A stretch of 64,000 nucleotides of DNA from Desulfobulbaceae bacterium (GTDB taxonomy: Bacteria; Desulfobacterota; Desulfobulbia; Desulfobulbales; SURF-16). The position numbers and the translations under genes were made by a program. Of this stretch, positions 3,776 through 29,737 are shown piece by piece. The DNA lies in contig JAHLLM010000004.1 of assembly GCA_020444175.1 (NCBI GenBank), forward strand, positions 13,399 to 77,398. The letters are read 5' to 3'. Every line of letters starts with the position of its first letter. Position 1 is the first letter of the stretch. Under the pieces are notes generated by a model. That model had not been told where the DNA came from and made no database searches. It saw only the letters and a program-made list of their open reading frames with translations.

Positions 3776-5184
3776 GCGGATATCTAAGCATGTTTTCTTC
3801 AGTTCTTTCTAAAATATTCACCCGGGGTAATGATCTTGAAACTCCTGACCGGGTGACTTTTTCCTGGTTGCTTCACTTCAGGTGGCTCACTGTTGCGAGT
3901 CTTTTTTTCCTGATCAGCGCGGCGTACAATGTTTTTGAAGTGAATGCCTCTCTGCTTATTTCTCTGATTCTGGTGATGGTCGTTGTTGCCAGCAACATTG
4001 CCTTTTATGTCCTGCTGGCCAAGGAAGAGGTTATATCCCACAGGCTGACCACGGCTGTCATGGTTTTTGACGTGAGCCTGCTTACTGCGCTCTTTACGCA
4101 GATTTCCTGTTCTCTGAATCCTTTTATCATCCTGTATATCCTCTATGTTTTTCTTGGGGCAACTCTTTTGCGCTTCAGGGATGCCTGCATTTTAATTTGT
4201 TTTTCTGTCTGCTGCTATGCCGTCTTCTACTTTTTTTTGTCAGATCCAATGGTTATGGGGGACGAGGCCTTCAGGAAAGTGGCGGCCCGCGGCATGCTTC
4301 CCCCGCAGGATTATATGGGAGCGTTTACGTTCTTTGTTGAAAATATCAAGGCTGACCTGGAGTCTTACTCAAATTTATTGTTTGCCGTGGTTTTGCTTGC
4401 CATGATTACCATTGGTTTTCTTGTCATCAAGATGAAGAAATCAATGGATGAGCAGCAAAAGATGACCAAAGACTATGAAACTATCAAAATCCGGTCTGAA
4501 AAACTCGCTTCACTGGCAACGCTTGCCGCAGGTGCAGCCCATGAATTTTCCACGCCATTGTCAACCATAGCCGTTGCGTCCGGGGAGATGCTTCATTATC
4601 TCAGGGAGCAGGGGGGAAGCCCGGACATGATTGAAGATACCAGGCTGATACGGGAACAGATTGGCAGGTGTAAAGAGATTTTGTACCAGATGTCGGCAGA
4701 TGCAGGAGAAAATCTTGGCGAGAATGCTGAAACATTTTTTGTTTCCGAAATCATAAATGAAATACCAAAGGTGCTCTCCTCTGAGTTGTATGGGGATGTT
4801 TCATTTGTAAATAAGATTGGCGATCTGCAGGTTACCATGCCTGTCCGCACATTGTTGCGCACCTTGAGAGGGGTATTGAAAAATGCCTTGGAGGCTTCTG
4901 AAGGGGAGGGACCTGTTGAATTTATATGCGATTTGACACAGACGCATCTCCTCTTTCAGGTAAAGGATCATGGCTCAGGCATGGACGAAGAGATGGTAAA
5001 GCGGGCCACGGAGCCATTTTTTACCACCAAGGAACCGGGGAAAGGCATGGGGCTCGGTCTTTATCTTGCCCAGGTCTTTGTGGAGAAATATGACGGATCA
5101 CTTGAATTTGATTCAGAGCCCGGCAAGGGAACAACTGTGACCCTGAGTTTTTCCAGGCACAGTATTCAGGGCAAAGAGTGCTGA
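3772..5184 (+). CDS. Membrane sensor histidine kinase, RegB/PrrB/ActS-like architecture
   Basis: 470 aa with about 6 N-terminal TM helices. A TM-embedded SCSLNPF resembles the RegB GGxxNPF motif. H-box is AAGAAHEFSTPLSTI. HATPase_c G-boxes are DHGSGM and GKGMGLGLYLA. Confidence 0.7.
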   Translation: MSGYLSMFSSVLSKIFTRGNDLETPDRVTFSWLLHFRWLTVASLFFLISAAYNVFEVNASLLISLILVMVVVASNIAFYVLLAKEEVISHRLTTAVMVFDVSLLTALFTQISCSLNPFIILYILYVFLGATLLRFRDACILICFSVCCYAVFYFFLSDPMVMGDEAFRKVAARGMLPPQDYMGAFTFFVENIKADLESYSNLLFAVVLLAMITIGFLVIKMKKSMDEQQKMTKDYETIKIRSEKLASLATLAAGAAHEFSTPLSTIAVASGEMLHYLREQGGSPDMIEDTRLIREQIGRCKEILYQMSADAGENLGENAETFFVSEIINEIPKVLSSELYGDVSFVNKIGDLQVTMPVRTLLRTLRGVLKNALEASEGEGPVEFICDLTQTHLLFQVKDHGSGMDEEMVKRATEPFFTTKEPGKGMGLGLYLAQVFVEKYDGSLEFDSEPGKGTTVTLSFSRHSIQGKEC

Positions 5185-5214
5185 GTTTGTCTTGCCTGAG
5201 GAGGTAATTACCCT

Positions 5215-6045
5215 ATGGAACGGATAAAAAAGTGCGTGGCCCATTGTGCCCACTCGCCTCTGTCTGAGATTCTATCAACAGCCGGGCAGGCAGCCCTTGA
5301 GGCGGGGAAGATTCTCCGAAATCTCTACTCCCAACCCCATCAGGTGCGATATAAGGGTGAAATTGACCTGGTCACCGAAGCCGATGTTGCCGCGGAAAAA
5401 AAGATTCTTGATATTTTTTCCCGCAGGTGCCCCGACGTCGCTATTCTGGCAGAGGAGTCCCATGCTGATTACACGAGCGTGCCGAAAGGAGCTGTCTGGA
5501 TTATTGACCCTCTGGACGGGACCACCAATTTTGCCCACAATTTTCCCTGGTTTGCCGTGTCTATCGGCTATGCGGAAAAGGGAGAAGGCCTTGCCGGTGT
5601 TATTTATGCTCCAATGCTTGATGAATTGTTCTGTGCCTGTAAAGGGTATGGAGCCTGGCTGAACGGAGAAAAGATAACGGTTTCCGGAACAGGCGATTTG
5701 GGGAAATCTCTTTTTGCCACGGGTTTTCCCTATGATGTTCGCCAAAAGCCTGAATCGGTTATTGCTGCCCTTGAGAAGGTGTTGACCCGAAGTCAGGGCA
5801 TCAGGAGAGCAGGTGCTGCAGCTCTTGATCTGGCCTATGTTGCCTGCGGCAGGCTTGATGGCTTCTGGGAGATTAAATTGAAGCCGTGGGATACGGCAGC
5901 CGGCTACCTGCTGGTGCAGGAAGCCGGTGGCAGGGTCACTGATTTCAGGGGTCGGACATATTCGCCTTTTGATGGCGAAATCTGTGCTTCAAACGCACTC
6001 GTTCATGACGGGATGACGGATATTCTCAAGGAATTTTCTTTTTAG
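5215..6045 (+). CDS. suhB: Inositol monophosphatase family protein
   Basis: 276 aa. IMPase signatures: AEESH, WIIDPLDGTTNFAH, WDTAAG. Confidence 0.85.
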   Translation: MERIKKCVAHCAHSPLSEILSTAGQAALEAGKILRNLYSQPHQVRYKGEIDLVTEADVAAEKKILDIFSRRCPDVAILAEESHADYTSVPKGAVWIIDPLDGTTNFAHNFPWFAVSIGYAEKGEGLAGVIYAPMLDELFCACKGYGAWLNGEKITVSGTGDLGKSLFATGFPYDVRQKPESVIAALEKVLTRSQGIRRAGAAALDLAYVACGRLDGFWEIKLKPWDTAAGYLLVQEAGGRVTDFRGRTYSPFDGEICASNALVHDGMTDILKEFSF

Positions 6046-6769
6046 TCCTGGCTGATTTTTTTCTGGAATACCCTGTTAAGCCAGCGAGGCCTGTGCCGAA
6101 AAGCAGCATGGTTCCCGGCTCCGGAATTGGGTTAGTCGGTCCCGGTCCCGGCTCGTCGCTTGTAATGACAAGGGTGCTTGACAGATAAATTGATATTCCG
6201 CTTAAATCGTCATGTTGTTCCAGGTAGAAACCGGAATTTGGGGCAGACTCGGAAAGGGTTAGTGTAATAACCGCTGTTTCAAAGTCGTCCAGGGAAAAAT
6301 GCCAGCCCATACCCATTGACACGTCGTCTTGAGTTATATTCTCATCATCATTGAAGATTGTTTTGTCAAGGTCTCCGCCTAATAGGTGACTGTGTATATC
6401 TCCTGTTTTGTCGCCGTCATAAATAGCCCAGTAACCCGGCTCATCAATCTCCCAGGTCTGGCCAGCCTCAGCAGTCCCATATGCGCTTCCCGATTCGTTA
6501 AAGAAGGAATTTACACTAGTTTCAATATCATGGTCAAAGACTGCCAGAAAGGTGTGGGCGCCGAACTCACTCGTTTGCCATGTCAGTGTGCCGAGGCCTG
6601 TCTCGGATATGAACCCCGTATTGTCAACAGTTCCCATATAAGGTTTGTAAAAGTATGCCCCGTCAATGTTAAATCCCCAGTCAAAGAGATCTATCTGCGT
6701 GGCTGAAACATTCTGACAGCCAAATGCCAGGATAAGAAATGTCAGCGTGCATGCTTTACATGTTTTCAT
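6026..6769 (-). CDS. PEP-CTERM sorting-domain protein (exosortase substrate), N-terminal domain unknown
   Basis: 247 aa with a signal peptide. C-terminus is PIPEPGTMLLFGTGLAGLTGYSRKK (PEP motif, TM helix, basic tail). Lies 18 bp downstream of the preceding gene. Its 3' end overlaps suhB convergently by 20 bp. Confidence 0.85.
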   Translation of the reverse strand: MKTCKACTLTFLILAFGCQNVSATQIDLFDWGFNIDGAYFYKPYMGTVDNTGFISETGLGTLTWQTSEFGAHTFLAVFDHDIETSVNSFFNESGSAYGTAEAGQTWEIDEPGYWAIYDGDKTGDIHSHLLGGDLDKTIFNDDENITQDDVSMGMGWHFSLDDFETAVITLTLSESAPNSGFYLEQHDDLSGISIYLSSTLVITSDEPGPGPTNPIPEPGTMLLFGTGLAGLTGYSRKKSARTKKKIP

Positions 6770-6787
6770 CTTTCTTCTCCCCTTTTA

Positions 6788-7519
6788 TCAGTTTTTAGCC
6801 TTAATTAATACTGTTACAGAAGTACCTGCCTGGGGCACGAGCTGTTCGTTTACAAACCAGATCTCATCGTTATTGCCGCTTTCCGCCTCATGGTCGATGA
6901 GTGCTGTCGGATCGTGATAGACGGCGGCAATGGAGCCTTGCACCTGTGCTTGAAATACTCCGTCCATGACAAATGATCCTGTGTATTTCCAGGCAAGTGA
7001 AACGGGTTTATTGGTGTTGTTTTGCCTTGTTTCGATCCAGGTATCCGCTGGAACTCGTTGGTTCTTGTTCCCGTCATGATAAATAATTGTTATTTCAACA
7101 GGGTCGCCGGCAGGGATTTCGGAGGCGCCCTGCTCAGTGAGGGGCTTGTCGGTTCCTTCAAAACCCAGCAGTAAGAAGGCAATATTCAGAAAATAGGGAT
7201 CCGTATCGGTGCGCAGCAGACTTTCATGGGTTTTCCCCTGTGACTGCACCAGCAGATACTCCAGTAATCCTTTATCCATATTGACCTGGGCCGGGAAAGT
7301 AATGCTGCGGGCCTTTTTGTGAATTTGAATTTCTCCAATGCGGTAAACTCCAGGAGCAATTTTTTCAATTGCCGGCTCAATATTTCTGCCTTCCGCTCCG
7401 GGCAAAGGCGTTCCCGGCTCAGCTGATACATTGCCGGCAGCCAGTATGAACAATACTATTGCCGTGAGCAGAAGACTTGCCCGTCGAAGTGATTTTGTTT
7501 TCAGTTTTTTCATGTGCAT
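6788..7519 (-). CDS. Secreted protein of unknown function (possibly YdjY-like domain)
   Basis: 243 aa with a signal peptide (LLLTAIVLFILAAGNVSA). The motif GLLEYLLVQSQGKTHESLL reminds me of YdjY-domain proteins. The ATG (7519..7517) directly abuts the RHS stop codon (7520..7522). The CDS is solid; the family call is weak. Confidence 0.55.
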   Translation of the reverse strand: MHMKKLKTKSLRRASLLLTAIVLFILAAGNVSAEPGTPLPGAEGRNIEPAIEKIAPGVYRIGEIQIHKKARSITFPAQVNMDKGLLEYLLVQSQGKTHESLLRTDTDPYFLNIAFLLLGFEGTDKPLTEQGASEIPAGDPVEITIIYHDGNKNQRVPADTWIETRQNNTNKPVSLAWKYTGSFVMDGVFQAQVQGSIAAVYHDPTALIDHEAESGNNDEIWFVNEQLVPQAGTSVTVLIKAKN

Positions 7520-10500
7520 TTAAAATGGTGCCAATTGATTTAAGTAGTTGAATGCCTCGGTGACGCCGTTCTCAAAACCACCGCCTGAAGCCTCTTTGGT
7601 GAACTCTCTCTCGCCTGACAGATTTCGCCACGTTGCCGTCAGTTTAAAGCCGACCTTGAATGTTACTCCGCCTTTGAAGGCTTCCGGTATGCCGCCGAGC
7701 AGTTTCAGTTGGCTCTTTTCGGCAATATAGCTTGCCCCACCCAGTTTTGTTTTAACCTTGTTTATTTCTATTTTTGTTTTCTCCATGGCAAGATACCAGT
7801 GAATGCCTATGTCATAACCCTCGCCGATTAATTCCATGTAGCTTGCCAGAAATTGTATATTCGTGGTGCTGAAACCATGCAGAAAACCTGCAAGTGCGGC
7901 CGATACCTCTTTGCCGCTTGGATAAGACAACACAACGACATAGCTTACAAGCGCTGTTTGTCCACTGGGGTCGGTATAAGTGACCGGATTATTCATGACA
8001 TAGGAGTATAGGTTGAGTGACTGGGGCAGGGTCAGGTCGCCCTGCTGCCCGTCACGTTGCAGGAAGCGTCCCAGGGCAGGATCGTAGGCCCTTGTTCTGT
8101 AATGGTAAAGACCGCTTTCCGCATCATACTCCCGACCGGTATATGTGAATGTGTTGACAAGTCCTGCTCCGCTGAAAGAGAAACTGCCGGAGTTTACAAG
8201 AAGCTGTCCCCAGGCGTCATATCCATAACGTTGCACCACATTCCCCGAGGAGTCGGTCAAGGCCACGACATTGCCCTGGCCATCCGCATGGTAAAAATAG
8301 ACGGAGCCGCCCTGCAGTGTCATCAGTGGTTCGTCCACCCTGTTGCTGTAAACATAATGGGCGGCCAGGGTGCCGTTGAGGTACTCGCTGAGAATGTGCT
8401 GGTTATCGTAGAGGTATTCACGGCTGTCGGCGGCAACAGTTTTTGCTGTGCGGCGTCCCATGGAGTCGTATTGATAGGTTGCCGTGAGTGTGCCGGAGCT
8501 GAACCCGGTCAGACGGGATGCACTGTCGTAGGAGTAGGCCGGGCCACCCGTAAAGGTCGTCATGTTGCCGTTTGGATCATAACTGTATGTGGTCGCGCCT
8601 CTTTGGTGCAGGGAGTTGTCTGTATTATAGGTTTCCGGGGTCCCTGCCGTAAAGCGGTTGCCGACGTTGTCATAGCTGAAGGTTTGGCTCGTTGTTCCCA
8701 GGTTCGTTGAGGAGATGTCTTCCCCGGTAAGCCGGTTCAGATTGTCAAGGGCCCAGCTGATGGAACCATCCGCTAGTGTGACGCCGGTGCGGTTGCCAAG
8801 GCTGTCGATTGTGTAGTCGTAGCTTGCTATTACTGTATCTGCGGCATCTTTTATAAGGATTGAATCAAGTCGGCCAAGGGAGTCATAGCCATAGGTGGTG
8901 GTCACGCCGTTTGAATAGGCAGCCGTCTGCCGCTGACCGGCAGCATTATAGCTAAAAGTGACCTGGTTGCCTCCTGCCTGCACTGAGTGCAGCCTGGAAG
9001 CGGCATCATAGGTGTAGATTATTTCCGTGCCGTCCGCAGCCGTTACTTTGGTGCGATTACCGGCTGTATCATACTCGTAGGCCACTGTGCGTCCATTGGG
9101 GTCAGTGACGCTTGCCAGCCAGCCGAAAGCGTTGTAAGTCATGTTGGTGATGAGGTCACTGCCGCCGTAGTTTTCCACCATCTGGGTGATCCGGCTGTTT
9201 TCGTCATATGTATAACTTACAGTGCCTTCGGGTTTGGTCTCTCTGACCAGACGTCCCATGTCGTCTCTGTCAAAAGTGATGCTCGCCCCGTCAGCCAATG
9301 TTTTGCCTGAGATATAGCCCTCTGCGTCATAGCTGAATCCTGAGCTGTTGCCCAATGGATCGGTGCGGTTGACCATCCTGCCGAGCCCGTCATAGTCATA
9401 AAGGCTTGGAACGCCATTGGCATTGGTAAGAGTTGTCATCTTGTTGATGTTGTTGTAGTCGAGCATGACCACCCCGGCCTGAGAATCGGTCACCTGGGAG
9501 AGGTTGCCGGAACCTGTGTAGGCGAAGCTGTCCGTGCCGTTGGCGTCGGTCCGCGATGTTATCTGGCCTTCATGATTGGAATTCAGGCTGAAAAGGATTT
9601 CGCCATCATGGTCTGTGACGGTTGCCAGATTGCCCATACCATCATAGGTAAAGCTTGTACGTTGACCGAGGCCGTCAATGATTGCCGTTTTCCTGCCCAG
9701 AGTGTCATACTCGTAAGAGGTTGTGAGACCGGCAGCATCAGTCATGCTGGTCTGGTCGCCAAAGGCATTGTAGGCTGAGTGGCTTATCTGGCCATTGGCA
9801 TTTGTATGGCTGAGACGGTTTCCGGAACCATCGTATGTCCAGCTTTCTGAAAAGAGGACAGTGCCGCCGCTGTTTTTCTTCTCTTTTGTCAGCGGGTTGC
9901 CGTCAGCGTCATACGTATAAAGAGTCTGGTCTCCCAGGGGATTCGTAATGCTGGTGACCTGGTTAAGTGAGTTATAGGTAAAGGTTCTGGTGAGCGCAGA
10001 GCCAGGATCAGCACTGTCTGTATAGCGGGTTTCGCTCAGCTTGTTGCCGTTGCCGTCATAGGTGAAGGTTATTTTCCTTCCACTTGGGTCGACACGTTCA
10101 AGCAGGTTGCCGTTGGCGTCATAAGAAAAAGAGGTAAGTCCGACAAGGGAATCGTTTTCCTCCACCACATTAGCCATGGAGTCGTAGGTATAGGTAATGC
10201 TGTGTCCGTTTGGATCGGTAACCGTCTCCTGACGTGCCGGCGGATTATAGCTGTATTCTGTCCGGTTCCCCAGGCTGTCAAGGTGGGCACTGAGTCGCCC
10301 GTCCGGGTAATATTCATTTCTGAGTGGCAAATGGCCATCCGGGGCCTGGATTTCCAGGAGATAATGGTCGCTGCCATAGACATATGTGGTTACATTGCCG
10401 TTCTGGTCGGTAAACTGAACGAGATCTCCGGCACCATCATAGGTGTAGGTCGTCTGCTGGCCGGCAGGATCGATAATGTTTGTGATACGACCTTGACCGT

Positions 10501-13500
10501 CTCTGGCAAATGTCACGTTTCGGCCTGTATTGGTGGTGATACCGTCAGTGGTAATTTCCATGAAATTACCGATTCTGTCTTCTATTCTATTGATCCCGAA
10601 GTCTTGATTAATGGTATATGTCAAGCCTGTTTTTGTACGCAGGACATAGGTTTCGGGATTGAAGATACCGGCTGAGTCGAGGAAGAAATACCAGTCTCCT
10701 CCTGAATAAACAACGGAGTGATTTCCGATAAAGTCAAGTTCATCATAGACCCCGGGAGGGGCTGTGAACTTGGCTTCGTACATCGGGAACCACGGTGAAA
10801 TTTGTACTGGAGTAAAGGCAAAGGCCACTCTGCGTCCGTCCGGCAAAGTGATAAAGACATTATGGCTCGCATCTTCACGGATATCAGCATTTTTCATATC
10901 CAGGGTCCAGCCGGCTCCAAAATCATCCTGGATGTTACGACTGCTGTCGTAGCTGCGTGTGAGGCTCAGGTCCATGCCCATGAGCGGCATGGCCAGATCT
11001 TCGTAGCTGATCACAAATCGTCCAAGCTGCAGAGGATCATTGACCTGACAATCAATCCAGGAGGATGAACTCTGGTTGGCATCATAGGCCGTGAGGCGGA
11101 AGCGGTAAAAGTCGTTGGTAAGTGTTCCTGCGTCAATCTGGCCGAGCAGGCCGCCTGTTACCGAGGTGTTGCCGCTTGCAATCTCGGTCCACTGATCACT
11201 GCCCACAGGGGCATATTCAAGAAGCCAGGAGGTCAGGTGGTCATCGCTTGCTGTTCCCTCAATGGCAATGACGCCGCTGATGATGTCTCCGGCTGCAGGT
11301 GTTGCAAAGGAAACCTGCGGCGGAACTTCATCTTCAGCTGCAGCCGGATCATAGACAATGACTGTGGCGCTATCTGTTGCGTTTCCTCCGAAGCCGTCAT
11401 CAGCAGTCAACATGACTGTGTAGCTGCCCGAGGTATCAAAGGTCAGATCCACTGTTGTTCCTGTATATGTATCACCGTCGTACGTCCAGGTATAGGTCGG
11501 CGTATCGCCGTCAGGATCAGCACCGTTGGCGGTTAAGGTGATCGGTGTTGCTATGGCCCCTTGATATGGTCCGCCTGCATCAATTACCGGATCGTTATTT
11601 GGAGGATGGGCAATGCTTAGGAGCTGCGTCGTTGTATTGGTGGCGCCTCTGTCATCGGTTACCGTCAGGCTTACAGTGTAGTCGCCGGGATCTGCATAGG
11701 CATGACTGACCATGGTGCCGGTGGTGGAGAGGCCGTCACCGAAATCCCATTGCCAGTTGGTTAGGGGCAGACTTTCCGGATCGCTTGATACGCTGCCGTC
11801 AAAGGTCAGTGTCTGCCATTTGAGGAGTTCTCCGGTTACGCTGAATGCTGCCGTCGGAGGCTGATTGGGTGGAGTTACATTGACCGTTGCGCCGGCTGAG
11901 TCCAGTCCGCCTCTACCGTCATCAACGGACAGAGAAACGTTAAAGAGTCCTTCACTGGTGTAAACATGGCTGACAGTCACGCCGTATTCGGGTGGGGTGC
12001 TGTCGCCGAAGTTCCAGGTATAGGTGAGCGGATCGTTGTCCGCATCATAGGACGCGCTGCCGTCAAAGGTGATTGCCGTATTAACCGCACCCGTATACGG
12101 ACCACCAGGATCGGCTATGGGAGGCGTGTTGGGCAGTTCCACCTGACAGGAGGTCTCCGCATGACCGGTGGCTCCCCGGTCGTCGGTAACATACAGGGTA
12201 ACTGTATATATGCCATCTGCCGTATAGGTGTGGCTTACCTGAATGCCATGCTCCTCGCTGCCGTCACCAAAGACCCAGTGATAATCAACAATCAGGTCTC
12301 CTTCTGGATCATAGGAGCCGCTGGCGTCAAAATTTATCTCTTCATTGATCAAAGAACTGTAGGGGCCGTCATGCACTGCAATCGGCGCGTCATTCGGCCG
12401 TGGGCTCACTTCGATCTGGAAGAACTGCGTGGCGGATATGCCGTCACCGTCGGTAACACGGATCATCACGTCATGAACTCCCCATTGGCTGCGCAATGGA
12501 GTCCAGATAATAAGCCCGGAGGCAGGATCGATCGTCATGCCGTCCGGTGCCAAATCAAGCAGAAAGGTCAAAGCGCTTCCCTCCGGGTCACTTGCTTCGA
12601 CATCATATTCGTAGAGTATTTCTTCAACAGCTTCTGTTATCGGAGTACTTGATATAACCGGGGGAAGGTTGATGATTCGTCCCTGTGAATAGACATAGAT
12701 CGGATAGGAAATCAGCTCTTCGCCGTTAATTTCCGTGAAAATGCGGTACCAGTAATCTTTGTCAAGCTCGATTCCCGTAACCTGCATACAATCTGTGCGG
12801 CCAAGTTCGTCAGCGATAAATGCCGCATCAATGCCATCAACATCAAGGTCTTCGTCAAAATCGCCCAGGCAGGGGAAGGTGGCAGGGTCGCAGTCAATAC
12901 GACCGAGCTCAAGGGCAAAAAGTGCTTCATCATCAGCATCAACGACAGCGTCGTCATTGAGGTCGGAAGCGCAGGTATTGGCTAGTTCGCCAACGTTTTC
13001 TGCCAGATTGTGGTCAAGGAAAGATGCATAGGTAGAGGGGCTTGTGCCTATTTGCCTGAAAGCTTCATTGGGGCCGATTTCCGAACGGAAAATACGATAG
13101 GCAGTGGCACCGGCCAGTGGAGACCAGAGAAGCTGGCATTTCGTATATTTGGGTCTGGCTGAAAGCCCGGTAACGCCGATATTGTAGACAGCGACCTCGC
13201 CATAATCCACATTGGTCAGGTCCGGCTGAGCGGATTGCGGAAACACGGTTGCTGTATTGTCGGTGACGCGCAGGGCGATATCAAAGCGGCCGGATGAGGT
13301 AAAGGCCGGGAGTATGGCTGTCTCCCCGGTGGCTTCTGCAAAATCGTATGGGGCAATAAAATCAGACTCCCAGTCCCAGGCGGTGATTGAGTCGCCTTCA
13401 GGCTCATCGATATCATAGGAGCCGGAGCCGTCTACCTGGACTTCTTCCCCAACGGCAGTCAGATAAGGGCCGCTCATCACTGCAGTCGGCGGATGGGGAG

Positions 13501-15700
13501 GGATAGTAACATGCATGGTGAGACTTGAGGTGTCGAAACGCACCGGTGTCGAGTTGTCAAGAACCTTGAGACTCACTGTGTAGTCCTGCAACTGGCCGAA
13601 GGCATGGTCAACTGTCACTCCCAAAGCATCGGGGTGAACAAAGTCAACTCCGTCCGAGGCGTCAAAATCCCACAGGTAATCAACTATTTCTTTGGCTGGA
13701 TCGACGTGGTAGGAGCCCGAGGCGTCAAAGTGAATGAGCTGCCCCACAGCGCCGGGATTTGGTGCGGCATTGATAATTGCCACCGGAGGTTTTTCAAACA
13801 GGGTACGGGTCAGGATGATGACGTCCCAGGCCGTGGCCGTCCGTTTTCCTAACCAGCTATAATTATTCCAGGATCCATCAGAGTTTTGATGGTTGACCAG
13901 ATGGCGCGCCATTCCATAGGTTTCATCTCCGTACCAGTCGAGTCCCGTTGCTGAAAGATGGGTAACCTCTTGGGGGAGAGCGAGCCGCAAGGCTTTGGTG
14001 AACGCATAATAACCATATGTGAATTGTCCATTCCATTGGCCGAGAAATGAACTCCAGGAGTTGGCTAACCAGTTTTCAGCTGTCTGCCAGCGCGAGTCGC
14101 TGGTGGTGAAACCGTCAAAGGCCAGCTGCACCATTCCTGAAGGTGTCGTTGCCCAGCCGTTTCCGCTTCCCGTATAGCCAAAACCTGTGCCATTATAGCT
14201 GTTAATCAACCATGAGTTGTTTCTGTCTTTTACCCATTGTGGAACCGTGCAGCCAAAGTTATTTTCAGCCGGTATCATGCCGATGGCCCCCCATTGGGCT
14301 GCGGAGTTATCAGGCCAGTCTTCCCAGTTGTAACGCCAGCCGCCATAGGTGTTGTGTTGTCCCCAGGCGTACATGTCAACCATATCCTGGACAATATCCT
14401 GATACCGGCGGCCAAGGACATTGGCTCCCCCGGACTGGGCCATGGCATCAGGTGAGCCGGTAGCCACAAAGGCGTCCATCACAGCACCAGTTTCATAGAT
14501 TGAGCGACCGCTGGACCAGCTGAGCCCGATGCCATTGCTATTTGTATCAGGATTGGCTGGGTTGCCGCTGCTGTCCGTACCCTGGATCGTCATGTTGGTT
14601 GAACCCAGGCCGCTCAGCAGATAATCGATGCCTCCCAGCACTGCTCCCACATATGGGTCTTCGTTTGAATCTCCTGTTTCATGGTGGCCGTTGATCTCAA
14701 AGGCCTGCACTGCCGATGCTGTTGAATTGCCATAGTAGCCCGTATAGTCGGATGCAGGATAATTCTGCCAGCGAACACTTGGGTTTGGATTCCAGTAGAG
14801 TTCGGCTCTGGCTCCACTTCCAGCTTCATAGTACTCCATGACGATGTCATGTCTGCCGGCACTCATATACAAGAATGAAGTGTAATTCCACGTAGATGCC
14901 TGATTTTCCCAGTCATTTATAAGAAGTTGGTTGTCGATAAAGAGCCGCACTCCATCATCGGTACGGGTTGCAAATTGGTAGTAGCCATTTTCTTTGATGT
15001 CAATTTCTCCACTCCAACGGATACTGAAAGAGTCTACCCCCATTCCACTGATTGGAGCTCCTACCCAGTAAAAATTTACCTGGGAATCAACACGACTTGT
15101 GAAAAAATCGTTAAAATTGTAGTTGTCGTAATATTCACCTAGCAAACCCGGATCTCCATCTGGTGTGAAGAGAGACGTGGTTGGAATGATTTGTTGGGAA
15201 CCTGAAAACTGCTTGTTCGTATAGAGCCACCACAAACCGTCGTCAATGGACTTGTTGACTTCCACGTCCAGGTTTTGGGCACGGATGAGGATACGGTAGT
15301 CGTCCGAGGAGGATTCTCCGGCAGTATCGGTAACGTGCAGGCGAGCGATAATAAGCGTACCCGGGTCAGCAGAATAGGTATGGGTTGCTGCAAGGTTGTC
15401 GGCATTGGTGATGGTCTGTACGGGGGAAACATCGCCATCGCCAAATTCCCAGTAATATGTGCCGCCGAGATGGTCACCGTCTGCATCCCTGGCAATGCCC
15501 TTCAAAATAGTTGGTTCCCCGGACCAAGTCTCATGGGGAACTAGAAGATCAGTTGGTACCTGTGGAACGGTAATAACCTGGGGAGGAGCTGCTGAAGCAA
15601 TGCTCGGGCCGATTATTAAAGAAGTAAAAAAGAATCCGAAATGGACAGTGAGTAAAAAGAAAAATGCTTTAACAAAATAATCACTTTTCTGTTGATTCAT
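7520..15700 (-). CDS. Giant RHS/YD-repeat surface protein with PKD, PA14, terpene-cyclase-like toroid and dockerin-like modules and a variable C-terminal domain
   Basis: The track ORF is 2744 aa (to 15754). The likely start is ATG 15700, preceded by GGGGGAGAG, giving MNQQKSDYF plus a hydrophobic anchor.
Modules in order:
- PKD-like module.
- PA14 (GLLGEYYDNYNF...AELYW, about 14795-15150).
- Prenyltransferase/squalene-cyclase-like repeats (GGWRYNWEDWPDNSAAQWG, HQNSDGSW).
- Dockerin-like Ca loops (DLNDDAVVDADD, DFDEDLDVDGID).
- Five tandem PKD domains.
- Dozens of YD repeats (YxYDxxGN).
- RHS core end YDPALGRFLQRDG...NLYSYVMNNPVTYTDPSG. Confidence 0.9.
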   Translation of the reverse strand: MNQQKSDYFVKAFFFLLTVHFGFFFTSLIIGPSIASAAPPQVITVPQVPTDLLVPHETWSGEPTILKGIARDADGDHLGGTYYWEFGDGDVSPVQTITNADNLAATHTYSADPGTLIIARLHVTDTAGESSSDDYRILIRAQNLDVEVNKSIDDGLWWLYTNKQFSGSQQIIPTTSLFTPDGDPGLLGEYYDNYNFNDFFTSRVDSQVNFYWVGAPISGMGVDSFSIRWSGEIDIKENGYYQFATRTDDGVRLFIDNQLLINDWENQASTWNYTSFLYMSAGRHDIVMEYYEAGSGARAELYWNPNPSVRWQNYPASDYTGYYGNSTASAVQAFEINGHHETGDSNEDPYVGAVLGGIDYLLSGLGSTNMTIQGTDSSGNPANPDTNSNGIGLSWSSGRSIYETGAVMDAFVATGSPDAMAQSGGANVLGRRYQDIVQDMVDMYAWGQHNTYGGWRYNWEDWPDNSAAQWGAIGMIPAENNFGCTVPQWVKDRNNSWLINSYNGTGFGYTGSGNGWATTPSGMVQLAFDGFTTSDSRWQTAENWLANSWSSFLGQWNGQFTYGYYAFTKALRLALPQEVTHLSATGLDWYGDETYGMARHLVNHQNSDGSWNNYSWLGKRTATAWDVIILTRTLFEKPPVAIINAAPNPGAVGQLIHFDASGSYHVDPAKEIVDYLWDFDASDGVDFVHPDALGVTVDHAFGQLQDYTVSLKVLDNSTPVRFDTSSLTMHVTIPPHPPTAVMSGPYLTAVGEEVQVDGSGSYDIDEPEGDSITAWDWESDFIAPYDFAEATGETAILPAFTSSGRFDIALRVTDNTATVFPQSAQPDLTNVDYGEVAVYNIGVTGLSARPKYTKCQLLWSPLAGATAYRIFRSEIGPNEAFRQIGTSPSTYASFLDHNLAENVGELANTCASDLNDDAVVDADDEALFALELGRIDCDPATFPCLGDFDEDLDVDGIDAAFIADELGRTDCMQVTGIELDKDYWYRIFTEINGEELISYPIYVYSQGRIINLPPVISSTPITEAVEEILYEYDVEASDPEGSALTFLLDLAPDGMTIDPASGLIIWTPLRSQWGVHDVMIRVTDGDGISATQFFQIEVSPRPNDAPIAVHDGPYSSLINEEINFDASGSYDPEGDLIVDYHWVFGDGSEEHGIQVSHTYTADGIYTVTLYVTDDRGATGHAETSCQVELPNTPPIADPGGPYTGAVNTAITFDGSASYDADNDPLTYTWNFGDSTPPEYGVTVSHVYTSEGLFNVSLSVDDGRGGLDSAGATVNVTPPNQPPTAAFSVTGELLKWQTLTFDGSVSSDPESLPLTNWQWDFGDGLSTTGTMVSHAYADPGDYTVSLTVTDDRGATNTTTQLLSIAHPPNNDPVIDAGGPYQGAIATPITLTANGADPDGDTPTYTWTYDGDTYTGTTVDLTFDTSGSYTVMLTADDGFGGNATDSATVIVYDPAAAEDEVPPQVSFATPAAGDIISGVIAIEGTASDDHLTSWLLEYAPVGSDQWTEIASGNTSVTGGLLGQIDAGTLTNDFYRFRLTAYDANQSSSSWIDCQVNDPLQLGRFVISYEDLAMPLMGMDLSLTRSYDSSRNIQDDFGAGWTLDMKNADIREDASHNVFITLPDGRRVAFAFTPVQISPWFPMYEAKFTAPPGVYDELDFIGNHSVVYSGGDWYFFLDSAGIFNPETYVLRTKTGLTYTINQDFGINRIEDRIGNFMEITTDGITTNTGRNVTFARDGQGRITNIIDPAGQQTTYTYDGAGDLVQFTDQNGNVTTYVYGSDHYLLEIQAPDGHLPLRNEYYPDGRLSAHLDSLGNRTEYSYNPPARQETVTDPNGHSITYTYDSMANVVEENDSLVGLTSFSYDANGNLLERVDPSGRKITFTYDGNGNKLSETRYTDSADPGSALTRTFTYNSLNQVTSITNPLGDQTLYTYDADGNPLTKEKKNSGGTVLFSESWTYDGSGNRLSHTNANGQISHSAYNAFGDQTSMTDAAGLTTSYEYDTLGRKTAIIDGLGQRTSFTYDGMGNLATVTDHDGEILFSLNSNHEGQITSRTDANGTDSFAYTGSGNLSQVTDSQAGVVMLDYNNINKMTTLTNANGVPSLYDYDGLGRMVNRTDPLGNSSGFSYDAEGYISGKTLADGASITFDRDDMGRLVRETKPEGTVSYTYDENSRITQMVENYGGSDLITNMTYNAFGWLASVTDPNGRTVAYEYDTAGNRTKVTAADGTEIIYTYDAASRLHSVQAGGNQVTFSYNAAGQRQTAAYSNGVTTTYGYDSLGRLDSILIKDAADTVIASYDYTIDSLGNRTGVTLADGSISWALDNLNRLTGEDISSTNLGTTSQTFSYDNVGNRFTAGTPETYNTDNSLHQRGATTYSYDPNGNMTTFTGGPAYSYDSASRLTGFSSGTLTATYQYDSMGRRTAKTVAADSREYLYDNQHILSEYLNGTLAAHYVYSNRVDEPLMTLQGGSVYFYHADGQGNVVALTDSSGNVVQRYGYDAWGQLLVNSGSFSFSGAGLVNTFTYTGREYDAESGLYHYRTRAYDPALGRFLQRDGQQGDLTLPQSLNLYSYVMNNPVTYTDPSGQTALVSYVVVLSYPSGKEVSAALAGFLHGFSTTNIQFLASYMELIGEGYDIGIHWYLAMEKTKIEINKVKTKLGGASYIAEKSQLKLLGGIPEAFKGGVTFKVGFKLTATWRNLSGEREFTKEASGGGFENGVTEAFNYLNQLAPF
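7523..7957 (-). other. C-terminal variable (putative toxin/effector) module of the RHS protein; 145 aa after the PVTYTDPSG boundary
   Basis: The sequence after the conserved RHS core-end motif is TALVSYVVVLSYPSGKEV...GVTEAFNYLNQLAPF. I recognise no catalytic motif in it. By eye it is more AT-rich than the repeat region. Confidence 0.6.
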
Positions 15701-15864: not shown

Positions 15865-15881
15865 TGCAAAAAGCATTCCTG
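15865..15881 (-). promoter_or_regulatory. Candidate sigma-54 (-24/-12) promoter for the RHS operon
   Basis: Minus strand reads CAGGAATGCTTTTTGCA. GG and GC have the canonical 12-nt register and the -12 TTGCA is perfect, but the -24 box is weak (AGGAAT vs TGGCAC). About 165 nt upstream of ATG 15700. Confidence 0.4.
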
Positions 15882-15979: not shown

Positions 15980-16010
15980 ATTTCTGAAATTTCCTTTTTT
16001 CCGGAAAAAA
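15980..16010. promoter_or_regulatory. Cluster of TTTC/GAAA palindromes (candidate enhancer/operator)
   Basis: ATTTCTGAAAT (15980-15990), GAAATTTC (15986-15993) and a perfect 16-bp palindrome TTTTTTCCGGAAAAAA (15995-16010). These lie 100-130 bp upstream of the candidate sigma-54 promoter. Confidence 0.4.
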
Positions 16011-16493
16011 TTCTGTGCAGCGTTCAGGTTTTTAGATTTTAATAATAGCTTGAAATAATAGCTGAAAATGATAAGTATTATCAAGTTGTTAGTTAGGGTG
16101 CCTCTCTCATTTCCTGTAAATCGGAAATTGTTTGGTTCGAAATGGGGAGACGTGTCCAATTGTTGAATATTTCAGCAAAAAAAATTGGTAACTCTTCATC
16201 GGTGCCCCACGGACTCCGTGTTACCTGCTCCCCGCACCTGAGGCAACCAGGTACTTGCTGTCCGGAGTTAAGATCCCTTTCTGGCCATGGCTGCATTGCG
16301 GCAGAATTTGTTTGCTTTTTCATCTGATTCCAGCAGAGGGAATGCCGGTTTGGATTGCGGGGAAGATTCGAACCCTTGGGTGTCATGTTTATTGCAATAA
16401 TATCTATAGTATCTATTGCAAAAGTTTGTCTGTAGCTTTATTGAATGTTTTTAATTCGACCTCGCGAGTTCATCCAGATTCGATGGATAAATA

Positions 16494-24561: not shown

Positions 24562-25263
24562 TTATATTCTCAATTTTTTCCGTGAAAAACCTGCTATACC
24601 TGCAAGTCCAGTCCCAAAGAGCAACATGGTTGCCGGTTCGGGGATTGGATCAGGCGCAACATCATAACAGCCGCTGAGATTTGTCCAGTCCACCCCGAAA
24701 GAGCCTTCCACTGCGGTAAGTTCAACTTTAAGGAGGTGATCGTCTTCCAGGTAGGACCACACGTTTATATGGTTTGCTCCGTCACCGATCAATTCTGCTT
24801 CAATGGAAACGCCATCCCAGCTAAAAGTTGAGGTGCCATCCGGATCCTTGAAGTTTGCATTATATTCATCAGTTGAATCCAGATCAAAAAGCAGGGTCAT
24901 TTCTTCTGTTTCCTTATCCGAGCCGGCACCGCTTCCGCCCATGACATCGGTAAAGGCGAAGGTGAGATAGGCATAATGGAGGATGTCATCGGGAGTCATT
25001 TGGCCGGTGCCCATATATGATTCATCGTCCAAAAGAAAATCTTCCCCAAGAGTATGAACTTCAGAGTCGGCAAGCTTCCAGAGGTTCATGTCATCTTCAT
25101 TCAGGTTAAAGGTCCAGGTGTATGATGTCCCTTGTGAAAATTGAATGTCATCCGCGTAGAGGTCTTCAAAGTGAATATGCGTTGCCTGGGCCGGCTGGGT
25201 CAGGATAAAACCAAAGGCTACTGTTGCAAAGAGTGAAATTGGTGTATTCAGTTTTTTTGTCAT
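24562..25263 (-). CDS. PEP-CTERM sorting-domain protein
   Basis: 233 aa with a signal peptide. C-terminus PIPEPATMLLFGTGLAGIAGFSRKKLRI. Confidence 0.85.
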   Translation of the reverse strand: MTKKLNTPISLFATVAFGFILTQPAQATHIHFEDLYADDIQFSQGTSYTWTFNLNEDDMNLWKLADSEVHTLGEDFLLDDESYMGTGQMTPDDILHYAYLTFAFTDVMGGSGAGSDKETEEMTLLFDLDSTDEYNANFKDPDGTSTFSWDGVSIEAELIGDGANHINVWSYLEDDHLLKVELTAVEGSFGVDWTNLSGCYDVAPDPIPEPATMLLFGTGLAGIAGFSRKKLRI

Positions 25264-25317
25264 TTTTTTCCCCTGCTCTTTTCTTAGCTGTTTTTGAAAT
25301 ATTGAAAGATAAAAAAA

Positions 25318-25331
25318 GCAATTCTTGTTCC
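25318..25331 (-). promoter_or_regulatory. Candidate sigma-54 promoter for the PEP-CTERM gene 24562..25263
   Basis: Minus strand reads AGGAACAAGAATTGCT. GG-N10-GC register is correct and TTGCT is at -12. About 45-55 nt upstream of the ATG. Confidence 0.45.
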
Positions 25332-25516
25332 TTTGTCAGGGGGTGCGACAATTTTGCATTTTTCTTTTAATAACAAATTGTTAACGGGTTATTGGGCCGG
25401 GTGTAATGTTGGGTTTTTCCAAAAAATCGGAAAAAGTCCGGTATTTTGGAAAAATAGGCGACTGAAATTTATTTGGTTTAAAAGGAGGGTGATGAGTTCA
25501 GGCAGATTTGCTCTTT

Positions 25517-28032: not shown

Positions 28033-28587
28033 TTAGGATTTTTTGCTTTTCCTTCTTGAAATTCCAGCCAAACCGGCAATGCCTGTTCCGAAAAGAAGCA
28101 TGGTGGCGGGTTCAGGGACAGGAGAGGTGTCAAATTCTCCGACATGACTCAGTTTGCCAATATTTTTAATTTCTAGGACGTCAGCACCAATTTGGTCAAG
28201 GAGGTCAATGACCCCCCAGTTCAACCCGGCAAGGTTCTCATACAAAAAGGTGTCAAATTCAGAAACCTTTAAGTTGCCGGTTTTGATGAGAAAATATGCC
28301 GGTTCAGATGAGAGAGAATGGGCATAAACGCTGTTGTCATCAGCAAGCTGTATCCATCCGGTGCCATCATCTGTGTCATATTTGAGGTAGTCGTCAACCG
28401 TATAGTTGGTATCGAGTACGGTGTTGATCCAGTTAATTTCATTCTCATCACCTGAGTTGCCCAGTTCGGTGCCGGCTAGGAGGTTGTCGATTGCTCCGAC
28501 ATCGCTCATAGTGAGAGCCTGAGCCAAGCCGGCTGTGCCAAGTACAATCACCCCAAAGGCTAGACAAGATACAATTTTCTTTTTCAT
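28033..28587 (-). CDS. PEP-CTERM sorting-domain protein
   Basis: 184 aa with a signal peptide. C-terminus PVPEPATMLLFGTGIAGLAGISRRKSKKS. Confidence 0.85.
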   Translation of the reverse strand: MKKKIVSCLAFGVIVLGTAGLAQALTMSDVGAIDNLLAGTELGNSGDENEINWINTVLDTNYTVDDYLKYDTDDGTGWIQLADDNSVYAHSLSSEPAYFLIKTGNLKVSEFDTFLYENLAGLNWGVIDLLDQIGADVLEIKNIGKLSHVGEFDTSPVPEPATMLLFGTGIAGLAGISRRKSKKS

Positions 28588-28703
28588 ATATTACCCTTCC
28601 CGCTGGACTCTATTTGTTGCAGTTGCATGTGTCACTTTTAATTGATATTTGTCTTCACTCTTCTTCAAGGCGTTTTTGTTAAATCTTATTTGATATGAAA
28701 CCT

Positions 28704-28719
28704 TGCAAACATGGTGCCG
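28704..28719 (-). promoter_or_regulatory. Sigma-54 (-24/-12) promoter for the PEP-CTERM gene 28033..28587
   Basis: Minus strand reads CGGCACCATGTTTGCA vs consensus TGGCACG-N4-TTGCA. GGCAC and TTGCA are perfect with correct spacing. About 105-115 nt upstream of ATG 28587. Confidence 0.65.
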
Positions 28720-28811
28720 TTTTTTACGGGTGAATATTTTTTGTTTATATATCTAACTTTTTTAGTTAGATATGGCTTAATGAAAGATAATTAATCCTGG
28801 GGGGAAAAATT

Positions 28812-28863
28812 TTTTTCAGAAAAAGAAATCAGTTTTCCGGAAAAAAGTACATTTTTCCGGAAA
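28812..28863. promoter_or_regulatory. Three helically phased TTTC(C)/(G)GAAA palindromes (candidate enhancer for a sigma-54 activator)
   Basis: TTTTTCAGAAAAA (28812-28824), TTTTCCGGAAAA (28833-28844) and TTTCCGGAAA (28854-28863). Centres are about 20 bp apart, 93-144 bp upstream of the sigma-54 promoter. They are also only 25-75 bp upstream of the TauE-like gene on the other strand. Confidence 0.45.
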
Positions 28864-28887
28864 TTTTACAGAGGATTTACATAAAAT

Positions 28888-29628
28888 TTGTTTGAAATAT
28901 TTTCTGGCGGTCAAATCTATCTCATCCCCCTCATATTCCTTGCCGCAGGATTTACCCAGGGTGTATCCGGCTTCGGTTCGGCGCTGGTTGCCATGCCTCT
29001 TCTGCTTTTCTTCATGGATGCCCATACCGCCGTGCCTCTCTGCATGCTGAACGGCTTGATCATAACATCGTTTCTTTCCCTGCAGCTCCGCAGGCATGTT
29101 GACTGGCAAAAGATCACCCCTCTTCTTTTCGGTTGTATGCCGGGTATTTATGTGGGAGCGCGGTTTTTAAAGGAGGCGGACAGCAATCTGATAAAACTTC
29201 TTCTGGGTGTGATGCTGGTCGGCTATTCGCTGTACAGTTTGTTTTTGAAACCCCGCACCAGAAAAATAAGGGCGCTTTGGCCTTACGCCGCAGGCTTTGG
29301 AACGGGAGTAATCGGCAGCGCTTTCAGCGCTGGGGGGCCGCCGACCATAATTTATGTCACCCTGACCAGCTGGGAAAAGGATGATATCAAGGCCACCCTG
29401 TCTGTCTTTTTTTTCATCACAGGCATATTCATGGCCTCGGCCCATGCCGTCACCGGCCTCACGACAAGGACGGTGCTGGGGTATTTTTCATTATCAGCTC
29501 TCTTTGTTCTTCTCGGTGTCTGGCTGGGATCGATTTTTTACGGGAGGATCAGGAGGGAGACCTATCTTCGCGTTATTTTATCACTGCTTGTGGTTATGGG
29601 GGTGGTGATGATAGGGACTTCGTTTTGA
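28888..29628 (+). CDS. TauE/SafE (TSUP) family sulfite/anion exporter-like membrane protein
   Basis: 246 aa with about 8 TM helices. GFTQGVSGFGSALVAMPLL near the N-terminus and GFGTGVIGSAFSAGGPP in the internal repeat are typical of TSUP. TTG start in the track. Confidence 0.7.
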   Translation: MFEIFSGGQIYLIPLIFLAAGFTQGVSGFGSALVAMPLLLFFMDAHTAVPLCMLNGLIITSFLSLQLRRHVDWQKITPLLFGCMPGIYVGARFLKEADSNLIKLLLGVMLVGYSLYSLFLKPRTRKIRALWPYAAGFGTGVIGSAFSAGGPPTIIYVTLTSWEKDDIKATLSVFFFITGIFMASAHAVTGLTTRTVLGYFSLSALFVLLGVWLGSIFYGRIRRETYLRVILSLLVVMGVVMIGTSF

Positions 29629-29629
29629 A

Positions 29630-29737
29630 GTGACTAAAGTGACTAAAGTGACTAAAGTGACTGGAGTGACTGGAGTGACTGGAGTGACTGGAGTGACTGG
29701 AGTGACTGAAGTGACTGAAGTGACTGAAGTTGACTCG
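29630..29737. repeat. 9-bp tandem repeat array (GTGACTNNA x 11 plus one degenerate unit)
   Basis: GTGACTAAA x3, GTGACTGGA x5, GTGACTGAA x3, then GTTGACTCG. The array starts one base after the TauE-like gene's TGA stop codon (29626-29628). Inverted copies (TTTAGTCAC ...) lie at 29820-29854. Confidence 0.9.

Follow-up and report, generated by a model that had tools for sequence, protein, structure and literature searches.

Paired palindromes upstream of sigma-54-type promoters as a candidate activator site for PEP-CTERM genes in Desulfobulbia

Introduction

The 64,000-nt stretch of contig JAHLLM010000004.1 from a Desulfobulbaceae bacterium that is analysed here (in its full length, 'the window') raises the question of what three short palindromes are doing between two divergent genes. 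One of these genes (28033-28587, minus strand) encodes a 184-aa secreted PEP-CTERM protein, the other (28888-29628, plus strand, with a TTG start) a TauE/SafE (TSUP) permease recognised by Pfam PF01925, and the intergenic stretch between them, 28588-28887, holds the palindromes together with a candidate sigma-54 (-24/-12) promoter directed at the PEP-CTERM gene. The answer that we favour, with a probability of about three in four as judged from the sequence, is that the three dyads act as the upstream activating sequence (enhancer) of a sigma-54-dependent promoter for the gene of a PEP-CTERM surface or matrix protein. The palindrome is a cis-regulatory motif found across the clade at sigma-54-dependent PEP-CTERM genes, and the arrangement is most likely a real and apparently undescribed activator-protein site within a type of regulation that is already known.

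That type of regulation was described when most proteobacterial PEP-CTERM genes were found to be single-gene units with long upstream regions, in which a 17-nt motif ending in TTTACA, sometimes repeated, lies on average 63 nt (32-92) upstream of a sigma-54 motif that is itself followed by a leader of ~70-130 nt (Haft et al., 2006; PMC1569441). The regulatory proteins PrsR, PrsK and PrsT were found by phylogenetic profiling in the same study, whose genome set was without Desulfobulbales. In Desulfovibrio vulgaris, the PrsR ortholog DVUA0057 was later shown by DAP-chip (DNA affinity purification read out on microarrays) to bind PEP-CTERM genes with sigma-54 sites (Rajeev, 2011; PMC3333781), and its sites, among them TGTCGGAAAAGGCAACA, TGTCGGGTTTTCCGACA and TGTCGGAGAACTTTACA, follow the pattern TGTCGGA-N3-TCCGACA, or TGT-N11-ACA (Kazakov, 2015; PMC4641369). 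The D. vulgaris DVU0110/DVUA0057 regulon also takes in the operon of a TSUP (TauE-family) permease, a target that both regulators share.

Results

The product of the gene at 28033-28587 carries a PEP-CTERM sorting signal that scores over the cut-offs of both Pfam PF07589 (E 2e-07) and TIGR02595, with the PEP motif, a hydrophobic helix and a basic tail at the C-terminus and a signal peptide at the N-terminus; it has 655 homologs, largely in Desulfobulbales, and an identical protein occurs in one Desulfobulbaceae metagenome-assembled genome. On the same strand and 117 nt upstream of the gene, CGGCACCATGTTTGCA (28704-28719, minus strand) had been called a near-consensus sigma-54 promoter in an earlier reading made from the sequence only, and the call holds: all consensus positions fit except the first T, the sole mismatch with TGGCAC-N5-TTGCA being a C for T at -26. 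The GG (28718/28717) and the GC (28706/28705) are exactly 10 bp apart, which is the exact -24/-12 spacing, and the element is intergenic, correctly oriented and kept in orthologous loci, with a position weight matrix score of 13.5 that exceeds the 95th percentile of background. Although no other exact GGCAC-N5-TTGC occurs in the 64 kb of the window, this match is not by itself significant, because about 0.5 exact matches are expected by chance; the weight of the promoter comes instead from its position, its strand and its conservation in orthologs. With 131 nt between GG and ATG, transcription is predicted to start near 28693 and to give a 5' leader of ~105 nt.

Upstream of this promoter the palindromes form a regular array, much as the sequence-only reading had proposed. 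The distal site, TTTCCGGAAA (28854-28863), is centred at 28858.5, 141 bp from the -24 GG, and fits the cross-genome consensus given below; the middle site, TTTTCCGGAAAA (28833-28844), is centred at 28838.5, 121 bp from GG and 20 bp from the distal site; and the proximal site, TTTTTCAGAAAAA (28812-28824), centred at 28818 and 100 bp from GG, is degenerate, with one additional central base. The dyad centres are thus spaced 20.5 and 20 bp apart, and Tandem Repeats Finder, independently of the dyad calls, reports an array of 20-bp period at 28813-28863. Measured edge to edge, the two full sites are 115 and 135 nt away from the sigma-54 motif and the degenerate one 93 nt. The array has the geometry of an enhancer, with at least two dyads 80-150 bp upstream of a -24/-12 element and on one face of the DNA. 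The window has four exact copies of TTTCCGGAAA where 0.28 are expected, and none of 100 shuffles reached four; with up to one mismatch there are 17 occurrences against 4.6 expected. Three of the four exact copies fall in the two intergenic regions that had been singled out beforehand; the fourth, at 24163 within a phosphodiesterase ORF (open reading frame), is presumably due to chance. Between the dyads and the sigma-54 promoter there is also a perfect 10-bp inverted repeat, ATATCTAACT-N6-AGTTAGATAT (28747-28772), with no counterpart in the orthologous loci L002, L011 and L024 (related loci are designated by such numbers); its role could be that of a bend or IHF-like site, or a second regulator might bind there.

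Further evidence comes from other genomes. Species-representative genomes were scanned for the C-terminal sorting signal, which yielded 80 loci, nearly all from Desulfobulbales or related Thermodesulfobacteriota, and the 450 nt upstream of each called PEP-CTERM ORF were collected and freed of redundancy to give 92 regions. When all 8-mers were ranked by their frequency in these regions relative to the remainder of the loci, the three highest-ranking words with G or C were TCCGGAAA, CCGGAAAA and TTCCGGAA, the first with 49 occurrences against 95 (9.4-fold, p 1e-30). Confining the comparison to noncoding DNA gives 21 occurrences of TTCCGGAA in 31.9 kb upstream of PEP-CTERM genes compared with 12 in the remaining 123 kb (odds ratio 6.75, p 1e-7), a result that hardly changes when the window is left out (odds ratio 6.4, p 8e-7). 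For about two thirds of these 33 noncoding occurrences, a PEP-CTERM start codon follows 160-460 nt downstream.

Sigma-54 sites show the same bias. A score beyond the 95th percentile of background was found in 46 of the 92 upstream regions, and in contiguous noncoding upstream DNA such a site precedes 40 of 79 PEP-CTERM genes as against 16 of 261 other genes (odds ratio 15.7, p 1e-17). The composite arrangement, in which TCCGGA stands 60-170 nt upstream of a sigma-54 site, is found at 17 of the 79 PEP-CTERM genes and at none of the 261 neighbouring genes (p 4e-12). With TTCCGGAA-type words among the most enriched 8-mers and the composite confined in this way, the suggestion that the locus defines a candidate regulon with a recognition motif of its own is supported.

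The sites also obey rules of placement. TCCGGA is centred upstream of the promoter in all 32 cases, in 21 of them at 73-140 nt from GG, and the site consensus, WWTTCCGGAAAA, has an A-run that faces the promoter and is slightly better conserved on that side. The 23 full sites are accompanied by 20 half-sites (TTCCG or CGGAA), 13 of which are 19-22 bp away. In L041, L012 and L035, a secondary site with one additional central base is found at 19-21 bp from a full site, L041 having the very 13-mer of the window, TTTTTCAGAAAAA, at 20.5 bp and the other two having variants of the form TTTTCC-N-GAAAA; the imperfect third dyad of the window has therefore been counted as a site. The features of the sequence, their conservation and enrichment, the rules of position, spacing and orientation, and the specificity for PEP-CTERM genes are all direct observations.

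In orthologous loci the core of the palindrome has outlasted its surroundings. The divergent TauE/PEP-CTERM pair and the position of the sigma-54 promoter are kept in four species-level lineages; in L002/L004 and in L005/L006/L011 the PEP-CTERM orthologs are 68-71% identical and the divergent TauE gene is retained. The promoters corresponding to that of the window are TGGCCTCACAATTGCA, TGGCCTTACAATTGCA and CGGCCCAAAATTTGCC in L002, L011 and L024, all at -96 or -97, and 107 nt further upstream of the first two stands AAATTCCGGAATTCCGGAC, the remaining spacer being unalignable. In L024, the fourth lineage with the TauE pairing, CGGAAATCCGGAAAA is found ~95 nt upstream of CGGCCCAAAATTTGCC. TCCGGA is thus kept about 95-141 nt upstream of the sigma-54 promoter, in the orthologous loci at about 95-115 nt, while the neighbouring DNA has diverged. 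An alignment of the four intergenic regions with MAFFT was poor beyond the TCCGGA block and misplaced the promoter of the window, which is why the comparison was made by anchored coordinates. The arrangement also precedes other PEP-CTERM genes: at the second such gene of L005/L002, TTTCCGAAAAACCGGAATCATTCCCGGAAAC comes 110-130 nt before TGGCCCGAAAAGTGCA, and in Desulfocastanea catecholica (L010) TATTCCGGAAAATC stands 110 nt upstream of TGGCCTAAATTTTGCT, ahead of a different PEP-CTERM gene.

The window holds three PEP-CTERM genes, since PF07589 is over its cut-off also for the products of 24562-25263 and 6026-6769. The latter is the last gene of an operon (6026-15700, minus strand; Pfam, NCBIfam and the gene calls in L091) that encodes a PA14/PKD/RHS protein of 2.7 kaa (thousand amino acids), a YdjY-domain protein and a 247-aa PEP-CTERM protein, with gaps of 0 and 18 nt between the genes. 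The sequence-only reading held that the same half-site at the same distance recurs at both of these units. For the RHS operon it does so in the form of a perfect 16-bp palindrome, TTTTTTCCGGAAAAAA (15995-16010), which is 124 bp upstream of a candidate GG and has a secondary site, ATTTCTGAAAT (15980-15990), at 17.5 bp from it and 106 bp upstream of the candidate promoter; that promoter, AGGAATGCTTTTTGCA (15865-15880, minus strand, score 10.0), is a weak match, and the case of the RHS operon therefore rests mainly on the palindrome. For the second PEP-CTERM gene (24562-25263) the sites are degenerate: TTTTTCC-N8-GGAAAAA (25414-25435) and TTTTGGAAAAA (25444-25454) lie 94-118 bp upstream of AGGAACAAGAATTGCT (25317-25332, minus strand, score 10.3), again a weak candidate, and as a case of the same arrangement this gene is suggestive only.

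A variant in which the half-sites are 8 bp apart (TTCC-N8-GGAA) occurs at 25414-25435 and 16109-16128, at ~4804-4820 of L005 and in L011, with examples such as TTTTTCC-GATTTTTT-GGAAAAA and ATTTCC-TGTAAATC-GGAAAT, and stands before PEP-CTERM units in two genomes.

Some features of the wider locus may be recorded here. The PEP-CTERM genes at 6026-6769 and 28033-28587, which are ~22 kb apart in the window, are adjacent in relatives. The intervening DNA encodes the RHS and YdjY proteins, a DedA/VTT protein, myo-inositol-1-phosphate synthase, a UbiA prenyltransferase, a phosphodiesterase, two xylose-isomerase-like TIM-barrel proteins of the AP_endonuc_2 family, the second PEP-CTERM protein and a hybrid kinase. 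A block comprising a 470-aa RegB/ActS-like kinase, an inositol monophosphatase and the PEP-CTERM gene is shared between 3772-6769 of the window and 5087-8150 of L005. Between the TauE gene and a convergent TraB/GumN-family gene, the 9-mer TGAAGTGAC is repeated 12 times in tandem (29626-29735), in an array that overlaps the final base of the TauE stop codon (29628).

Discussion

The mechanism that we would propose for this locus begins with dimers of an enhancer-binding protein (EBP), equipped with an AAA+ domain and a Fis-type helix-turn-helix, which would occupy the TTCCGGAA dyads two helical turns apart on one DNA face and assemble into an active oligomer. A loop in the 80-100 bp of AT-rich DNA in between would bring this oligomer into contact with the closed sigma-54 holoenzyme at 28704-28719, and ATP hydrolysis would then lead to opening of the promoter. 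The binding of a protein, the dependence on rpoN, the start of transcription and the looping of the DNA are steps that we infer. The same type of site may serve the RHS/YdjY/PEP-CTERM operon and, through degenerate copies, the second PEP-CTERM gene, as well as a large fraction of the PEP-CTERM genes across the class Desulfobulbia; a site type shared in this way would define a PEP-CTERM regulon that runs parallel to that of the PrsR PEP-CTERM box and is distinct from it in sequence. In its widest form the proposal is that Desulfobulbia possess a second, PrsR-independent PEP-CTERM regulon, in which an EBP that recognises paired TTCCGGAAAA dyads activates the genes of many secreted matrix proteins through sigma-54 and, in this genome, that of the giant RHS/PKD protein as well. 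We put this broader version forward tentatively, and would stop somewhat short of even odds for it.

Several observations weigh against reading the dyads as an enhancer of PEP-CTERM genes. The related loci were found by way of their PEP-CTERM genes, and the background for the enrichment is the neighbourhood of those genes and not whole genomes; the sigma-54 matrix is our own approximation from the published consensus and was calibrated empirically on random windows only. The motif is present in only about one fifth to one third of the PEP-CTERM upstream regions. Within the window, AGGAATGCTTTTTGCA and AGGAACAAGAATTGCT rank only near the 90th percentile among random 450-nt windows, and coding DNA gives equal scores. 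When metagenomes were scanned starting from the motif, as TTCCGGAAAA-N78-108-TGGCAY-N6-TGCW, only three of the 122 matches listed had a PEP-CTERM gene downstream, the dominant kind among the matches listed being chance matches in coding DNA, notably Walker-A GSGKT codons (GGTTCCGGAAAAAC) and glmS. Finally, the 64-kb window and its extension of ~8 kb to the left (L091) contain no gene for an EBP (AAA+, GAFTGA), and in other genomes the EBP genes close to PEP-CTERM genes with the motif come from unrelated subfamilies.

Gene-internal copies of TTCCGGAAAA often turn out to be the codon string GGTTCCGGAAAAAC for the G-S-G-K-T of a Walker A motif (L096, L097, L164, L168, L178, L181 and others, and position 24163 of the window), and genome-wide scans with TTCCGGAAAA consequently need to be limited to intergenic DNA.

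The search for the activator itself led in several directions. Across 11 related loci, the EBP genes near PEP-CTERM genes fall into PrsR, PAS-, GAF- and receiver-type groups, none of which goes consistently with the motif. Identifying the activator by gene adjacency was accordingly given up: the window has no EBP gene to offer, and the neighbouring EBPs elsewhere are heterogeneous. By NCBIfam, neither the hybrid histidine kinase between two of the PEP-CTERM genes nor the 470-aa kinase near the RHS operon is PrsK.

An EBP of ~500 aa with a Cys-rich sensor domain, 50-59% identical between genomes, is encoded 1-3 kb from PEP-CTERM genes in L025, L026, L077 and L080. In two of these, L025 and L080, the PEP-CTERM promoter has GTAAATTA 64-66 nt upstream of GG in place of TCCGGA, which hints at a third type of enhancer for PEP-CTERM genes.

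Two overlapping metagenome contigs, L102 (3154-4745) and L203 (1-1000), which protein similarity assigns to candidate division WOR-3, show an NtrC-type response-regulator gene followed by two copies of TTTTCCGGTTTTCCGGAAAA and then by a perfect TGGCACGAAAATTGCT, with four TTCCGG repeats directly downstream of the regulator gene. The operon behind TGGCACGAAAATTGCT encodes a 149-aa protein, a receiver-only regulator and a 217-aa protein. The same core motif is thus used in an unrelated phylum for genes other than those of PEP-CTERM proteins; as a candidate for the activator, this regulator was set aside, since an operon without PEP-CTERM genes from WOR-3 is not informative for Desulfobulbia.

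Of the alternatives to an enhancer with an activator of its own, the one that survives best supposes that the PrsR ortholog itself (TIGR02915) is what binds the sites, which would then simply be the Desulfobulbia version of the known PEP-CTERM box. The gene class and the sigma-54 context are identical, the half-site CGGAA is similar to the left half of the PrsR box known from Desulfovibrio, TGTCGGAA, PrsR homologs are encoded beside PEP-CTERM genes in Desulfobulbia genomes (L076 and L085), and the D. vulgaris PrsR/DVU0110 regulon includes a TSUP permease just as a TauE gene is the divergent neighbour here. The location, too, upstream of a PEP-CTERM gene with a sigma-54 motif, is that of the PEP-CTERM box. 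The palindromes nevertheless differ from the box. None of the three dyads in the window contains TGT-N11-ACA or conforms to the 17-nt box, and their distances of 93, 115 and 135 nt from the promoter fall outside the ~63 nt (32-92) of the box; the half-sites are arranged the other way round, with TCCG|CGGA in the centre and the A/T runs outside; and the palindrome comes in pairs 20 bp apart as well as farther from the promoter.

The canonical box, with its 17 nt, TGT-N11-ACA, TTTACA end and ~63-nt spacing, persists unchanged in the same dataset, as TGTCGGAATTTTTTACA beside a TIGR02915 PrsR in L085 and as TGTCGGGTTTTTTTACA in L021, and both types of site occur within the single genus Desulfopila (L085 as against L044). 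The identification of the sites with the PrsR box was accordingly rejected on sequence, on spacing and on the coexistence of the two, and we have not filed the palindrome as a PEP-CTERM box, given that sequence, half-site arrangement and promoter distance all differ and that the two types coexist within one order and even one genus. Binding by PrsR itself strikes us as unlikely, if still the most serious of the competing explanations. A direct repeat, TTTACA-N5-TTTACA, is found at 28867-28883, ending 5 nt ahead of the TauE TTG start; it is like the 3' half of the canonical box, yet it is not TGT-N11-ACA.

The palindrome works like the PEP-CTERM box and belongs to the same kind of system. The two share PEP-CTERM genes that are mostly single-gene units with long 5' regions, an activator site ahead of a sigma-54 motif and a leader of ~70-130 nt. 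The difference is that here a TTCCGGAA dyad stands 73-160 nt upstream and is typically paired at 19-22 bp. With the DVUA0057/DVU0110 regulon the locus has in common a sulfate-reducing host, an EBP (here a putative one) at PEP-CTERM sigma-54 promoters and a permease of the TSUP/TauE family, but the site consensus is another one and the TauE gene here lacks a sigma-54 promoter. Enhancers of the NtrC type, such as that of glnAp2, likewise consist of tandem dyads ~100-140 bp upstream of a -24/-12 element and on the same DNA face, with oligomerisation of the activator; their sequence is unrelated, NtrC recognising TGCACC-N5-GGTGCA, and the spacing of two helical turns and the choice of a secreted-protein family as target are peculiar to the present case. 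The RpoN/PrsR-dependent PepA floc-formation genes of Zoogloea and Aquincola are reported to provide a PEP-CTERM gene that is RpoN-dependent by experiment, in Betaproteobacteria with a PrsK/PrsR system (PMC9850573).

The sequence-only reading had stated that it did not recognise the motif as one already described, and this impression stands: TTCCGGAA is absent from all 33 EBP motifs reconstructed for D. vulgaris (PMC4641369), and queries of the searchable literature with the decamer or octamer together with RpoN, and with PEP-CTERM together with Desulfobulb*, found no description of it, the search being a limited one and not proof of absence.

A second alternative, which had been raised as a caveat from the outset, treats the palindromes as an operator at which a conventional repressor or activator would control the divergent TauE gene, with their relation to the PEP-CTERM gene incidental. 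The distances on which it was based are correct, for the palindromes lie 25-76 bp upstream of the TauE TTG start; the divergent pair is kept in four lineages, and a TSUP permease is a target of DVU0110/DVUA0057 in D. vulgaris. More than 20 loci with the motif, however, have no TauE gene, TauE stands beside a PEP-CTERM gene only in the close relatives of the window, and neither of the two other motif regions in the window has a TauE neighbour, that of the second PEP-CTERM gene having no divergent gene at all. Position and orientation of the sites instead follow the sigma-54 promoter and the PEP-CTERM gene. On the TauE strand there is no sigma-54 site (best score 3.2), nor is there a convincing sigma-70 promoter upstream of the only plausible TauE start, the one that was flagged being placed so that it would initiate inside the gene. 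It is therefore unlikely that TauE is the primary target of the palindromes, and an operator dedicated to it seems to us very improbable; a secondary effect on TauE, by co-regulation or interference, is possible.

Least probable of all, to the point where we would dismiss it, is that nothing binds here and that the sites are a chance A/T-rich low-complexity repeat, a hairpin or terminator, or a restriction or methylation target. In its favour are the A/T-richness of the region, the fact that type II enzymes are known to recognise TCCGGA, and a simple scan that flagged 28834-28863 as a terminator-like hairpin of 12 pairs. Neither composition nor a 6-bp methylation site, however, accounts for the enrichment, the fixed distance to the -24/-12 element and the conserved A/T flanks in ~20 species-level genomes. 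The hairpin call is an artefact of two self-complementary copies of the palindrome. An intrinsic terminator was rejected as a candidate, the hairpin being A/T-rich (4 GC pairs of 12), lacking a proper T-tail and adjoining no gene end on either strand, as was a structured RNA, the region matching no Rfam family.

If the dyads are indeed an enhancer of PEP-CTERM genes, the gain is incremental and not conceptual, since the logic of a sigma-54 promoter with an activator site ahead of PEP-CTERM genes has been in print since 2006. Desulfobulbia include the cable bacteria, along with Desulfobulbus, Desulfocapsa and Desulfopila, and little is known of how PEP-CTERM genes are controlled outside Proteobacteria and Desulfovibrio. 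A motif as sharply defined as this one allows the regulon to be predicted in any Desulfobulbia genome and gives a basis for the design of reporter or DAP-seq (DNA affinity purification sequencing) experiments; it could also be used as a phylogenetic profile to find the regulator and the signal to which it responds, as was done for PrsR. The motif also indicates that the PEP-CTERM genes of one clade are split over at least two types of sigma-54 enhancer, which implies separate signals, and in sediment bacteria the proteins placed under their control are thought to be major constituents of extracellular matrix, flocs and biofilms.

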